Assembly (NCBI GenBank): GCA_963702895.1
Contig: OY969767.1
Coordinates: forward strand, 1,664,001-1,728,000
Length of the DNA: 64,000 nt
Reading direction: 5' to 3'
DNA from: an uncultured Elusimicrobia bacterium
GTDB taxonomy: Bacteria > Elusimicrobiota > Elusimicrobia > 2-01-FULL-59-12
The translations under genes and the position numbers were made by a program. Of the stretch, positions 1,403 to 39,980 are shown piece by piece. Under the pieces are notes generated by a model that was not told where the DNA came from, did not search any database, and saw only the letters and a list, made by a program, of their open reading frames with translations. Numbering within the stretch: the stretch's first letter is position 1; each line of letters starts with the position of its first letter.

Positions 1403-2116
1403 TTAAATTAAGTGCCGCCCACCGTCCACACGAATCGTCTCGCCCGTAATAAAATCGGTCTCGCATAAAAATCGTACAGCCTTCGCGAGCTCTTGCGGAC
1501 CCCCCCATTTCCCAAGTGGCGTGGCCTTCAAGACCGCCTGAAATTCCTTTGACCCAAGACCTTTGGGCGCAAGCAGCGGCCCTGGCGCGATGGCGTTCAC
1601 CAGGATCTGGGGCGCTAACTCCAGGGCCATGGCTTCCACCATCGCCTGGAGGGCTGCTTTGGACGTGTAATAGGCCGCATACCCTTTATACCGGGGCCTG
1701 TGACTGGCACTCGTCCAATCGGTGACATGAACGATGCGGCCCTCGTCGGAGCGGCGCAGATATGGGAGAACACTTGAGGTCACGTTTTGTGCCGCGAACA
1801 CGTGAAGCCTGATATGCTTCTCCCAGGACCCTCGCTCATAGACCGACGCCATGTTCACCAGAATATTGAGGGAACCCAGCTGCGCCTCAATATGGCGAGC
1901 GGCTTTTTCGGCCTGATGAGGACGAATCAGATCGCAGGCGAGCACCATCGTTGGAGCTCCAAAGAGGCGAAGCTCTTGGGCCGTTTCCTCCGCGAGCTTG
2001 CGTGAATGGCTGTAGCTTAAAGCGACGCCACACCCCGCTTGCGCGAGAGAAAGTGCCACAGCCTTTCCCATCCGGGCACCACCCGTGATCCACGCCACTT
2101 TTCCGTTTAAATCCAT
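1403..2116 (-). CDS. SDR oxidoreductase, pteridine reductase/FolM-like
   Basis: TGGARMG, NMAS, YYTSK, VNAIAPG, ITGETIRVDGGRHL. Confidence 0.85.
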   Translation of the reverse strand: MDLNGKVAWITGGARMGKAVALSLAQAGCGVALSYSHSRKLAEETAQELRLFGAPTMVLACDLIRPHQAEKAARHIEAQLGSLNILVNMASVYERGSWEKHIRLHVFAAQNVTSSVLPYLRRSDEGRIVHVTDWTSASHRPRYKGYAAYYTSKAALQAMVEAMALELAPQILVNAIAPGPLLAPKGLGSKEFQAVLKATPLGKWGGPQELAKAVRFLCETDFITGETIRVDGGRHLI

Positions 2117-2166
2117 GAAGATCTTCCTCTGGTTACAGTTTCAGGGGCAACGCTCCAGCTCGAGAT

Positions 2167-2238
2167 TGGGTCCGGTGGGTTTCGAACCCACGGCCCCCGA
2201 CTTAAAAGGTCGGTGCTCTACCCCTGAGCTACGGACCC
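2167..2238 (-). tRNA. tRNA-Lys(TTT), CCA not encoded
   Basis: GGGTCCG/CGGACCC acceptor stem, CCGAC-CTTTTAA-GTCGG anticodon arm, GGTTCGAAA T-loop. Confidence 0.95.
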
Positions 2239-2256
2239 AATCTCGAGCCAAATTTC

Positions 2257-2291
2257 GCCCCCGACTTAAAAGGTCGGTGCCCTGCCCCTGA
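2257..2291 (-). pseudogene. Partial duplicate of tRNA-Lys (D arm/anticodon arm)
   Basis: gcccccgacttaaaaggtcggtgc identical to tRNA-Lys, then two mismatches in the next 11 nt. Confidence 0.8.
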
Positions 2292-2491
2292 CCATCACTT
2301 TACCACGATAGCCGCAACAATTTCCCTTTGATGAAAGCAACTGTACCATCCGGAACTGCTTCTAAAGGACCCTCATTATATAAGATGTATAATGTTTCGA
2401 AATTTAGGGTCGATTCTCGTCAGAGAATGCTCACCCTTCTGTCTGGATCAGCGGCAAACCTCGTTTTCGTTTTGTGGTCTGGGCGCTGCAG

Positions 2492-3015
2492 GCCCCCATC
2501 GACTCGTGGTTAGGTCACAGCCCTTTTCCGCCACTAGGTCGTTGGCGGACCCGCCGCGATGGAGTGGCGGGCAAGGCTCCGCCACATGACCGGCGGATGA
2601 CCAAGAGTTTGTGTAGTGCCCCCATAGACTAGTGGTTAGGTCACAGCCCTTTCAAGGCTGTAGGACGTAAGAGAAGTCTTCAGTGCGACTGGAATAGGCG
2701 TGCCCCCATAGACTAGTGGTTAGGTCACAGCCCTTTCAAGGCTGTAGGACGGGTTCGAATCCCGTTGGGGGCACGCTTATAACTCCCAGTCGCACTGAAG
2801 ACTTCTTGAAGGGTTCGCCCGCCACACAATCGGCGGGCGAGCGCCTGAAGTGTGGCGCTCGAATCCCGTTGGGGGCACCACACAAACTCTTGGTCATCCA
2901 CCGGCCGTGTGGCGGACGAATCCCGTCCCGCATCCTTGTAGCTAAGAGTGCGGGACTGTACCGGCTCATAAGCTCGCCCCAGCGAGCGGGTCAAAGGTTC
3001 GGTACGTTGGGGGCA
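2492..3015 (+). pseudogene. Two fragmented tRNA-Glu copies nested around the intact gene
   Basis: Outer fragments at 2492-2528, 2572-2578, 2917-2926, 3005-3015; middle fragments at 2618-2667, 2812-2816, 2861-2880. Confidence 0.8.
2702..2773 (+). tRNA. tRNA-Glu(TTC), CCA not encoded
   Basis: GCCCCCA/TGGGGGC acceptor, CAGCC-CTTTCAA-GGCTG, GGTTCGAATCC. Confidence 0.95.
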
Positions 3016-3051
3016 TATCGCTCACGAGTCAAGGATGGACATTGGATCATC

Positions 3052-3489
3052 ATGCAACCTCACGATTCACTGATCGCCGAACACAAGAAACTGCGCGCGC
3101 AAGCAGAAACCCTCGAGGTGCTGATGCGCGACGCACCCCAAACACTGGGGGAGGGTCTCGTACGTTTCCAGACCATGCTCCGAGAGCACTTTCAGCGCGA
3201 GGATGTTTACTACCGGGTCCTGGACGGCGATCAGCGGATCGCTGATCGCGGCCTCATCCACCAACTTCGCAACGATCACGCCGCCGTTGTCTTTATCCTC
3301 GAGAGTCTGGCCATCCGGCTCCGAAAAAACGGTTGTGACGCAGATTGGCGGGGCCGGTGGCGGAACTTGATGAATGTTTTCCTGCCCCATTTAGAGAAGG
3401 AAGAGCAGACCCTTTTTCCTCTGGGATGCAAGCTCCTGTCCGAACAAGAGTCCCGCTTCATTGCCGAGCAGATGGCGCCAAGTGACTAG
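3052..3489 (+). CDS. Hemerythrin/HHE-domain protein
   Basis: EH..., HFQRED, NDH, HLEKEEQTLFP pattern; start moved to ATG 3052 because the longer ORF overlaps the tRNAs. Confidence 0.8.
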   Translation: MQPHDSLIAEHKKLRAQAETLEVLMRDAPQTLGEGLVRFQTMLREHFQREDVYYRVLDGDQRIADRGLIHQLRNDHAAVVFILESLAIRLRKNGCDADWRGRWRNLMNVFLPHLEKEEQTLFPLGCKLLSEQESRFIAEQMAPSD

Positions 3490-13036: not shown

Positions 13037-16080
<3,044 letters not shown>

Positions 16081-16081
<1 letters not shown>

Positions 16082-36706: not shown

Positions 36707-36828
<122 letters not shown>

Positions 36829-36841
36829 GTTCCCAGGAACT

Positions 36842-36917
36842 TGGTGGACCGGATGGGACTTGAACCCACAGCCTCCTCCATGCCATGGAGGCGATCTCCC
36901 AATTGATCTACCGGCCC
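36842..36917 (-). tRNA. tRNA-Ala(GGC), CCA encoded
   Basis: GGGCCGG/CCGGTCC acceptor with G3:U70, CCTCC-ATGGCAT-GGAGG, GGTTCAAGTCC. Confidence 0.95.
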
Positions 36918-36930
36918 ACCCAGTTCCCGA

Positions 36931-37170
36931 TCACGCGAACTTACGGTGAAGCTCCTGTCTCCCCAATCCTGTCTTCAAATACTGCTCGCGCTGAACAGCT
37001 TGCTTACGCGTCTCAAATGCCTCTACCAGCAGTAAATCGAACGGCCTTGTGTTTCGTGTTGCAGCTGATCTCCCCTCGTTGTGTTCAGCCAGTCGCCTGT
37101 TAACATGGTCGGTAGAACCTGTATAAAACCGCCCATTTTTTCGGCTGATAAGAACATAGACATAATACAT
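36931..37170 (-). CDS. Stand-alone small GIY-YIG nuclease
   Basis: YVYVL..FYTGST..RRLAEHN..REQYLK, 79 aa. Confidence 0.9.
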   Translation of the reverse strand: MYYVYVLISRKNGRFYTGSTDHVNRRLAEHNEGRSAATRNTRPFDLLLVEAFETRKQAVQREQYLKTGLGRQELHRKFA

Positions 37171-37225
37171 ACTTCGAACTCATCAAAGTCCTGGTTGGCC
37201 TCAGACAGCCACGAACTCACCAAAA

Positions 37226-37313
37226 TGGTGGGCGAATCGCCAGAAGCTTGGCGACCCACAGCCTGTCGCCAGACGTCTGGCGACCGATCTCCCAATTGAT
37301 CTACCGGCCCACC
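37226..37313 (-). pseudogene. tRNA-Ala pseudo-copy with hairpins replacing the anticodon arm and part of the T arm
   Basis: 37285-37313 identical to 36892-36920; cccacagcct and tggtgg retained. Confidence 0.85.
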
Positions 37314-39071: not shown

Positions 39072-39899
39072 TCAACGCAGGGGCACGTCATTCAGAAGAA
39101 CGCCTAATAAAATGTCTTGGCGCTCGCCTAATTTTTGAATCGATTTTCGGACCCGTTCCGGAGGCGTGCGACCGTATTGATTGATGATAATAATGCCGTC
39201 CACCTTGTCCGCCAGGGTCGTCACATCAGGATAGAGGAGGATCGGCGGACCTTCGACGAAAACCACATCATAAAGGGACCGCATCTCGGCAAGGAGTCGG
39301 TGAAAGGCGGGCGTTCCCCATTGCATTTCGGGATAGGCCACGACGGGACCCGCCGGCAAGACTCGAACACCTGTCGTTTCGGAGGCCCGGACCGCGATGG
39401 AAAGATTGATCGATCGCTGCAGGCAGCCGGACAAGCCGGGCTGTAGTTCGAGCGACAGGGCGCGACTGATGCGTGGTGAACGCGTGTGCGCCTCCACAAC
39501 CAGGGTCTTGACGTTTCGACGCTGCGCGGCGATGGCCAGGTTGACGCAAGAAAGGGATGCCCCCTCGCCGGAGACAGTCCCCGCGAGCAACCACACTTTT
39601 TGTCGGCGTGTTCGCGATCGCTCCAGAATTTCCTTGACGAGCGACTCATAGGCGAGCGCGGCGGGCGAATGTTCAGGGAAGTGAATCAGAAGCCGGGAGG
39701 ACCATCGCCCCTCGAGATCGATACGGCGTGTGCGGGGCCCCTGTTGGGGTTCAGTGCTTTTGCGTCGTTCCAGGTGCGGGATAATCGCGACCACGGGAAG
39801 GTGAAGCGCCGCTTCAATCTCCTCTGGAGAAACCACGCTCGGCCCGGACCATCGCCGCCAGAGCGCTCCAAGCCACGACAGGAAGTCCGTCACAAACAA
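39072..39899 (-). CDS. CpsD/CapB-like BY-kinase cytoplasmic domain, degenerate catalytic motifs
   Basis: GEGAS, NLA, YDVVFVEGPP, VDG, LGVLLND. Confidence 0.75.
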   Translation of the reverse strand: MFVTDFLSWLGALWRRWSGPSVVSPEEIEAALHLPVVAIIPHLERRKSTEPQQGPRTRRIDLEGRWSSRLLIHFPEHSPAALAYESLVKEILERSRTRRQKVWLLAGTVSGEGASLSCVNLAIAAQRRNVKTLVVEAHTRSPRISRALSLELQPGLSGCLQRSINLSIAVRASETTGVRVLPAGPVVAYPEMQWGTPAFHRLLAEMRSLYDVVFVEGPPILLYPDVTTLADKVDGIIIINQYGRTPPERVRKSIQKLGERQDILLGVLLNDVPLR

Positions 39900-39914
39900 T
39901 GGCCCAGATAGGAC

Positions 39915-39965
39915 TTCCCGCCACTCCGGCTTAGGCGGGCCCGCCTAGGACTTAGTGGCGGGGAA
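39915..39965. repeat. Family-B double hairpin downstream of tRNA-Leu
   Basis: cccgccact..aggcggg / cccgcct..agtggcggg. Confidence 0.75.
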
Positions 39966-39980
39966 CCTACACGCATACCA

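Follow-up and report, generated by a model that had tools for sequence, protein, structure and literature searches.

Nested tRNA-Glu genes in an Elusimicrobia genome and a double-hairpin repeat associated with small GIY-YIG proteins

The nested tRNA-Glu locus

The window is a 64,000-nt stretch from the genome of an uncultured Elusimicrobia bacterium (GCA_963702895.1, contig OY969767.1, positions 1,664,001 to 1,728,000), a genome that is 98% complete and is referred to as G000. Between positions 2492 and 3015, the window carries three collinear copies of a tRNA-Glu gene with decreasing decay, in which each inner copy sits at a single point of the next one and has its own complementary arms. The copies are numbered from the inside outward (layers 1 to 3), the interrupted outer ones are termed shells, and the complementary arms are termed clamps. 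The locus is composed as follows:

2388–2393 (+): TATAAT hexamer, candidate −10 box, upstream of layer 3 and hence of the nest; the motif is also found upstream of the single gene of G003
2492–2526 (+): 5′ part of layer 3, the oldest shell, tRNA nt 1–35 with two substitutions
2527–2571 (+): double-hairpin repeat in the anticodon of layer 3, CGCCACT type, without centre and without target duplication
2572–2578 (+): layer 3, tRNA nt 36–42; nt 43–54 are lost
2578–2597 (+): CGCCACA-type hairpin, the left half of the doublet around layer 2
2598–2617 (+): 5′ clamp arm of layer 2, unique in the genome, with 19/20 positions complementary to 2877–2896
2618–2667 (+): 5′ part of layer 2, the middle shell, tRNA nt 1–50, equal to the live gene sequence
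2668–2701 (+): 5′ clamp arm of layer 1, without a second copy in the genome
2702–2773 (+): layer 1, intact tRNA-Glu(UUC) without encoded CCA (ARAGORN, Rfam)
2774–2810 (+): 3′ clamp arm of layer 1
2811–2817 (+): layer 2, tRNA nt 50–56; one G stands on both sides of the layer 1 insert
2818–2859 (+): double-hairpin repeat of 42 nt that interrupts the layer 2 T-loop, with centre CG and a duplicated CG
2860–2880 (+): 3′ end of layer 2 with encoded CCA, overlapping the 3′ clamp arm at 2877–2896
2877–2896 (+): 3′ clamp arm of layer 2
2897–2916 (+): right-hand partner of the hairpin at 2578–2597, completing the doublet around layer 2; CG and the layer 3 T-loop come next
2917–2926 (+): layer 3, tRNA nt 55–64
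2927–3007 (+): 81-nt hairpin-rich late insert with a 3-nt overlap, in the 3′ part of layer 3
3008–3015 (+): acceptor 3′ strand of layer 3, no CCA
2166–2291 (−): neighboring tRNA-Lys(UUU) with its own 17-bp clamp (2158–2174/2232–2248) and a 5′ half-copy (2257–2291)

The innermost copy is called as tRNA-Glu(TTC) by ARAGORN and scores 68.5 bits in Rfam; no other intact TTC gene was called in the genome. Both programs thereby agree with an earlier sequence-only reading of this DNA, which had placed an intact tRNA-Glu lacking CCA at 2702–2773. The inverted repeat that it had seen around this gene is likewise present and consists of a perfect core of 21/21 bp (2672–2692/2786–2806) plus 7/8 bp that extend the acceptor stem directly. 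When 2668–2811 and 2817–2860 are removed, a gene with CCA is restored, as had been proposed: the product (75 nt) is the inner gene sequence followed by CCA and equals, letter for letter, the single un-nested tRNA-Glu gene of the congener G003. The 52 nt from 2616 are identical to the 52 nt from 2700, and a third copy from 2490 shows 79% likeness. Such loci call for care in annotation, as ARAGORN reports a false second tRNA-Glu at 2618–2704, and island finders based on attachment sites will misread them.

The outer layers are less uniform than first described. The outer inverted repeat (2578–2617/2877–2916) is indeed 36/40 complementary, but it is a composite of a 20-bp clamp (19/20) and two 20-nt hairpins that are the halves of a genome-wide double-hairpin repeat. 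The right outer hairpin is followed by CG and the remainder of the T-loop, as in the doublet at 2818–2859, which places layer 2 between the halves of a doublet in the T-loop of layer 3; layer 1, in turn, lies within the layer 2 T-stem. The hairpins on either side of layer 2 agree at 17/20 positions, compared with 10–16/20 for the 20-nt doublet halves elsewhere, and in this one case their likeness hints at inverted copying. The third tRNA-Glu is present as a decayed copy and not as a complete gene: it lacks 12 of the 72 tRNA nt (43–54), carries 2 substitutions within its first 35 nt, and contains a doublet and the 81-nt insert. The arms of layers 1 and 2 have only 2 nt in common, next to the gene.

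The TATAAT hexamer at 2388 is a probable −10 box, and a transcript from it would start before layer 3; a promoter and terminator scan with a two-hexamer promoter search returned 0 promoters and 0 terminators. The nest is followed by a gene for a hemerythrin-domain protein, which also appears to follow tRNA-Glu in G004 and G010. The nest is real, ordinary in function, with one working tRNA, and unusual in origin.

A misassembly of a short repeat is hardly credible as an explanation. The longest identical repeat measures 52 nt and the arms are unique. The assembly was checked against two DNA contig sets (share 0.06), in which one contig of run X1 (depth 2, 85% likeness) joins the layer 2 arm, the right hairpin, and the 3′ end of layer 3 to the downstream gene. 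This contig skips exactly the 81-nt insert and shows one difference over 3005–3116 thereafter, so that hairpins evidently accrete after the fact. Given its 85% likeness, the contig stems from a close relative and not from the same strain. No contig of the two sets spans the whole locus, and an exact 20-nt primer at the downstream junction had 0 matches in metagenome contigs, among which no conspecific version was thus seen. The same layout is found in G005 and, in part, in G002.

The survey of relatives comprised 30 tRNA-Glu(TTC) loci from related genomes and metagenome contigs, with a clamp at 9, a 5′ shell at 2, and a 3′ shell at 3. The congener G003 has a plain single gene, and G004 and G010 have the clamp only. 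In the congener G002 (73% complete), a 5′ shell carries a doublet at the same anticodon site, and in G007 and L069 only a 3′ shell is found. G005 harbors a full nest (the sequence in L070 is the same as in G005 and does not count as a separate case), and both its tRNA-Glu and its tRNA-Lys take on the layout of a tRNA between two hairpins that is seen here. In each of G000, G002, and G005, the shells agree with the allele present at that locus. A different arrangement occurs at L068:305–378 and 560–640, where an intact tRNA-Glu lies on the opposite strand, upstream of tRNA-Lys, and the usual site holds an invaded 3′ half alone.

Shells and clamps at other tRNA genes

The survey of other tRNA loci that the sequence-only reading had called for shows that the same nesting recurs in the genome and in relatives. 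Among the 47 tRNA genes of G000, 5′ shells are found at 19, 3′ shells at 21, both half-copies at 12, and both together with a clamp at 10, with shell thresholds set at the 97.5th percentile of 2022 null pairs. Clamps were measured by an anchored score, as an RNA-folding clamp count had a null mean of 10 bp; a score of at least 7 is reached at 18/47 genes compared with 0.97% of 2162 mismatched pairs. The 5′ shells are associated with clamps (15/19 genes with a 5′ shell are clamped vs 3/28 without), whereas the 3′ shells are not (11/21 vs 7/26, p 0.13). A search of the genome for second copies of the clamp arms found none. In the shells of tRNA-Ala, Thr(GGT), Arg(GCG), and Pro(TGG), the anticodon arm is swapped stem-for-stem for a single hairpin and is not interrupted.

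The two shells of a locus tend to break at the same position. The last nucleotide of the 5′ shell and the first of the 3′ shell correlate with a rho of 0.93 over 11 loci and fall within 2 nt of each other in 6 of these (permutation p 0.011). The input was 13 loci, namely the 12 both-shell loci and Glu-CTC, which was added by eye, and 11 of them gave both ends; the value for Tyr is probably a chance match and was kept in the statistics. The break positions themselves differ between loci (17, 26, 38, 50, T-loop). As a description, repeated copying of a tRNA into its own gene therefore survives, with breakpoints that match across loci. The accompanying claim that the flanking stem was copied along does not: each layer has a different clamp that is found nowhere else in the genome, and the gene's own flank is not copied inward.

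A local origin by replication accidents would require no donor cassette. The 3′ half would be duplicated, a separate fold-back template switch at the acceptor-stem palindrome would create the clamp, and hairpins would invade the spare halves later. Clamps that accompany 5′ shells and not 3′ shells fit this account, as do the one-sided states (3′-only in G007 and L069, 5′-only in G002), shells that match the local allele, and arms without another copy in the genome. However, independent events do not predict matching breakpoints, compensatory allele differences occur in the dead T-arms described below, and the one-sided states could also be products of nest collapse by recombination between direct repeats. 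Replication accidents are an unlikely origin on balance, albeit one that keeps some weight.

Clamps are also found outside the genus. The tRNA survey of G004, which belongs to another genus, yielded 34 distinct tRNAs from the best 30 of 44 matches, with at least 9 clamps and at least one locus with both shells. Across 28 isoacceptors, which were matched by hand with Met, two Gln-CTG, and Gly-TCC left out, G004 and G000 agree in 23 cases (clamp present in 7, absent in 16) and disagree in 5 (p 0.002). The clamps thus recur at the same isoacceptors with different arm sequences. Given this agreement, the clamp is a lineage trait of particular tRNA genes and does not require a nest, and the extended acceptor stem may be a selected feature of the precursor. 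As a folding aid the clamp appears dispensable in silico, since the inner acceptor stem was still paired in 30/30 folds with a shuffled 5′ arm.

These clamps bear on a further reading of the nest, as a functional RNA that acts either as a regulated precursor or as the source of a rejoined, CCA-bearing tRNA. The region folds very stably (z = −15.4 vs 100 shuffles) with the inner cloverleaf intact, so that a nested precursor, as the earlier reading had suggested, is possible as a fold; the recurrence of clamps at the same isoacceptors suggests that the clamp alone may be selected. As a function, the nested or rejoined product finds no support: relatives such as the congener G003 with its plain gene lack a nest, the inner acceptor stem stays paired when the 5′ arm is shuffled, and layer 3 is not rejoinable. 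Archaeal split and intron-containing tRNAs use complementary flanks to bring tRNA pieces together. Here, in contrast, an intact gene lies inside the interruption, the PF01974 splicing endonuclease has 0 matches in the 98% complete genome (four archaeal controls were positive), and an Rfam scan of 2000–3200 found no intron family. The loss of 12 nt from the outer layer, the missing splicing endonuclease, and the X1 contig without the 81-nt insert together identify the shells as scars in the DNA and not as spliced RNA. A functional nest is accordingly quite improbable.

The double-hairpin repeat and the small GIY-YIG proteins

The sequences that interrupt the shells belong to a hairpin repeat that occurs throughout the genome and is tied to a subfamily of GIY-YIG nucleases, which had no place in the earlier account. 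A strict pattern detects 216 hairpins and 48 doublets in the genome. Thirty of the 48 doublets are no farther than 500 nt from a tRNA gene, in zones that make up 1.6% of the genome. Among the 35 distinct doublet sites, 16 fall in a loop closed by a stem of ≥5 bp (7.7% for random sites), and 17 follow the T-loop motif GTT(C)(R). The doublet centre is the reverse complement of a target that is duplicated on both sides in 12/15 distinct centred sites. A doublet pattern with a 2-nt centre is present in 5/61 related genomes. In a collection of 185,579 genomes, the T-loop-plus-doublet pattern gave 7 matches in 3 genomes, all titled Elusimicrobiota, some of which repeat loci already seen.

A T-arm-like piece with a doublet lies just downstream of the live gene at 19/47 tRNA genes (20 rows, from which Leu-GAG was dropped as a remnant of its neighbor). 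At four loci other than Glu, the dead T-stem pairs 5/5 and yet differs from the live T-stem on both strands; for Met, it equals the live allele of the relative L067. These different, fully paired alleles point to donors in related cells, and the live gene is the newcomer at such loci. The layers of the Glu locus resemble each other too closely for such a distinction: layer 2 is identical to layer 1, and no foreign donor is shown there. Elsewhere in the window, at 39881–39980 (−), tRNA-Leu(CAA) is followed downstream by a dead T-arm whose loop holds a doublet and whose T-stem is fully paired yet differs in sequence.

The genome holds nine matches to PF01541. One is a 447-aa frame, which is presumably UvrC; five of the eight others adjoin tRNA genes, and none of the nine lies at the Glu locus. 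The tRNA-linked proteins are single-domain PF01541 proteins of 79–86 aa. One of them is encoded in the window:

36842–37311 (−): second locus of the same kind, next to tRNA-Ala(GGC), with a dead copy, then a GIY-YIG gene, then an intact, clamped tRNA-Ala
36934–37170 (−): 79-aa GIY-YIG gene, PF01541 alone over the cut-off

The dead tRNA-Ala(GGC) copy carries hairpins in place of its anticodon and T arms, and close homologs of the 79-aa protein sit at tRNA-Ala(GGC) in G001 and G006. Directly downstream of this tRNA-Ala(GGC), 25 perfect copies of a 4-nt unit (36710–36809) form a tandem array that is unusual for a bacterial genome. Further members of the family were noted at three places in G000. 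At C1:1813100–1814000, tRNA-Asn is followed by two tandem GIY-YIG genes with 71% identity, each of which ends in a T-arm copy with a doublet and takes its stop codon from the hairpin there. A GIY-YIG gene with one stop codon (C1:580611–580835) lies in the rRNA spacer between tRNA-Ile and tRNA-Ala, and a remnant (C1:1652990–1653142) is found between tRNA-Arg and tRNA-Lys.

In a tree of 30 of the 37 family matches, whose bootstrap values are not fully settled, a tRNA-linked clade comprises 14 rows, 10 of which lie within 400 nt of a tRNA gene. The corresponding counts are 0/5 for a clade with SRM-flanked members and 0/9 for a third clade; two further rows are located at tRNA-Gln. The five genomes with the doublet are exactly the five that match the 86-aa GIY-YIG protein at E ≤ 8e-18 (the next genome follows at 8e-11). 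They span three genera and two families, and the congeners G002 and G003 have neither; the genomes are incomplete, and as kin are not independent, the significance of this 5/5 match is overstated. In G000, G001, G005, G007, and G050, the GIY-YIG gene is flanked or adjoined by a live tRNA and dead pieces that carry doublets.

The 86-aa protein, encoded at G000:C1:1813436–1813693 (−), is modeled as one domain with a pLDDT of 83. A fold search with this model gave no match at E ≤ 0.001, the best rows being a UPF0213 protein and Slx1, and a sequence search with the 79-aa protein returned two UPF0213 structures. A protein search had three matches at E ≤ 1e-12, none of them named, and a viral search found 0 relatives of the 86-aa protein. 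In viral contigs, the doublet pattern had a single match that is neither at a tRNA nor hairpin-like and was taken as chance.

Origin of the nest and comparison with known systems

The favored explanation, which has slightly better than even chances, is that a replacement tRNA gene with its clamp was inserted into the resident gene more than once, with a GIY-YIG/hairpin system as the driver. It builds on the observed succession of decay, the insertion of each inner copy at one point, the late gain of hairpins, and the co-occurrence of the repeat with the nuclease subfamily. The nuclease would recognize a hairpin and/or the T-arm on single-stranded DNA and would subsequently cut. The clamped tRNA gene, as one long DNA hairpin that would most likely come from a related cell, could then be pasted into the cut cognate gene. 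Such an insertion would kill the resident gene and would be survivable through the replacement gene that it carries; the dead halves may later take up further hairpins. Transcription would run through the shells, and from established tRNA processing the innermost tRNA alone would be expected to mature by 5′ cleavage, 3′ trimming, and CCA addition. The genome contains two PF01743 nucleotidyltransferases. The Glu locus, which has no nuclease gene, is most likely the scar left after its tRNA gene was replaced at least twice.

Several observations stand against this favored reading. The variable break positions are unlike one fixed cut site, and 3′ half-copies alone are common and not associated with clamps. 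Clamps occur without shells, also in G004, which has neither the doublet nor the nuclease subfamily, and G002 (at 73% completeness) is nested without both; clamps and nests are therefore not dependent on this one subfamily. No viral carrier was found in the searches above, the Glu locus itself lacks a GIY-YIG gene, and the role of the nuclease is predicted.

According to the accessible part of the Islander paper (PMC4383910), tRNA genes are common targets of genomic islands, with known crossover sites in the T-loop, and the insertion splits a tRNA gene that the element restores. The nest could then be a stack of attachment-site remnants from integrase-driven islands that have since been deleted, and the displaced-looking T-arms downstream of 19 genes would fit. 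What an island leaves behind, however, is an intact gene with a single fragment. Here the whole gene is brought in, and it stands complete between both old halves, which complement each other. The objection that a simple attachment-site duplication is inadequate had been raised from the sequence already and is well founded. In addition, none of the four PF00589 integrase matches in the genome lies near the Glu locus or in the insert, the breakpoints vary, and the inserts are only 100–150 nt long. Island remnants are thus an improbable source.

It is very improbable that the clamped precursor RNA was reverse transcribed and inserted into its own gene. The inserted unit of leader, tRNA, and trailer is a plausible precursor, and the genome encodes three 507-aa reverse transcriptase frames, but a copy of its own precursor would repeat the flanks of the outer layer, whereas the arms of layers 1 and 2 differ in all but the 2 nt noted above. 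No link to the reverse transcriptase genes, which are 0.3–1.4 Mb away, is shown. The three frames (G000:C1:230277, 463860, and 1962540) have near-equal scores and are probably copies of one element.

One of the closest described systems is the phage T4 enzyme SegB. In the accessible part of its description (PMC2330249), SegB is a free-standing GIY-YIG homing endonuclease of a tRNA gene cluster that recognizes GGTTCRANTCC of the T-loop and spreads itself with neighboring tRNA genes, from which it follows that a GIY-YIG enzyme can recognize a T-loop motif. The gene position beside tRNA genes is shared by the tRNA-linked clade (though not at the Glu locus), and the SegB motif is the one that the doublet interrupts here. 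The differences lie in the C-terminal DNA-binding part (NUMOD3) of SegB, which contrasts with PF01541 alone in the 79-aa protein and the single domain of the 86-aa model, and in the double-strand breaks that SegB makes in phage crosses, as opposed to chromosomal proteins of ∼80 aa. The accessible text mentions neither hairpin repeats nor nested genes for SegB.

The Ssn nucleases resemble the proteins studied here in their pairing with a hairpin repeat: a single-domain GIY-YIG gene is flanked by, and co-occurs with, its own NTS/SRM repeat (PMC11893778, accessible part), and both groups stay below 150 aa. The tRNA-linked proteins nevertheless fall outside the SRM-flanked (cd10448) clade and are separated (97/97) from the five-row clade that holds all three SRM-flanked rows (100/100), in a tree without the reference SsnA. 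The SRM pattern has 0 matches within 400 nt of the 14 tRNA-linked rows. The accessible text of PMC11893778 does not mention tRNA; its supplementary tables could hold tRNA-linked members.

In REPINs, inverted hairpin doublets are the mobile unit, tandem and higher-order clusters occur, and each repeat family has one cognate enzyme (PMC3116915, accessible part). The repeat described here likewise forms inverted doublets of a conserved hairpin (48 among 216 hairpins). Its partner, however, is a GIY-YIG subfamily and not a Y1 transposase, for which the only candidate is a partial PF01797 match of 23.3 bits in an 89-aa frame. Furthermore, the conserved tag lies inside the loop and the targets are tRNA loops; the accessible text of PMC3116915 has no mention of tRNA. 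The Glu locus system thus works partly like SegB, Ssn/SRM, REPIN/RAYT, and genomic islands, but departs from each of them in a defining property. The accessible part of PMC4853749, on group I introns and MITEs, was considered and does not apply. No description of nested bacterial tRNA genes, or of a hairpin repeat and tiny nuclease that mark tRNA genes, was found in the literature searched, with subscription papers and supplements outside its scope.

A broader proposal is put forward tentatively and is possible rather than likely: that the ∼80-aa GIY-YIG subfamily and the double-hairpin repeat together make up a selfish system, hitherto undescribed, by which hairpins of single-stranded DNA are cut and pasted into tRNA genes, at loops as well as stems. 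A clamped tRNA gene would be handled as one such hairpin, essential tRNA genes would be serially overwritten from other cells, and the Russian-doll scars would record the order of events. If true, essential single-copy tRNA genes in this lineage are repeatedly overwritten by a mobile process without integrase or known transposase, and the exact co-occurrence of one repeat with one nuclease subfamily names a candidate enzyme and substrate. This would bear on how bacterial palindromic repeats spread and on the role of the many uncharacterized small GIY-YIG genes beside tRNA genes.

Apart from the tRNA loci, one further feature of the window was noted. The frame at 13037–16081 (−), which is taken to be UvrA-like, contains a low-complexity insert of ∼50 aa that resembles a translated short tandem repeat.
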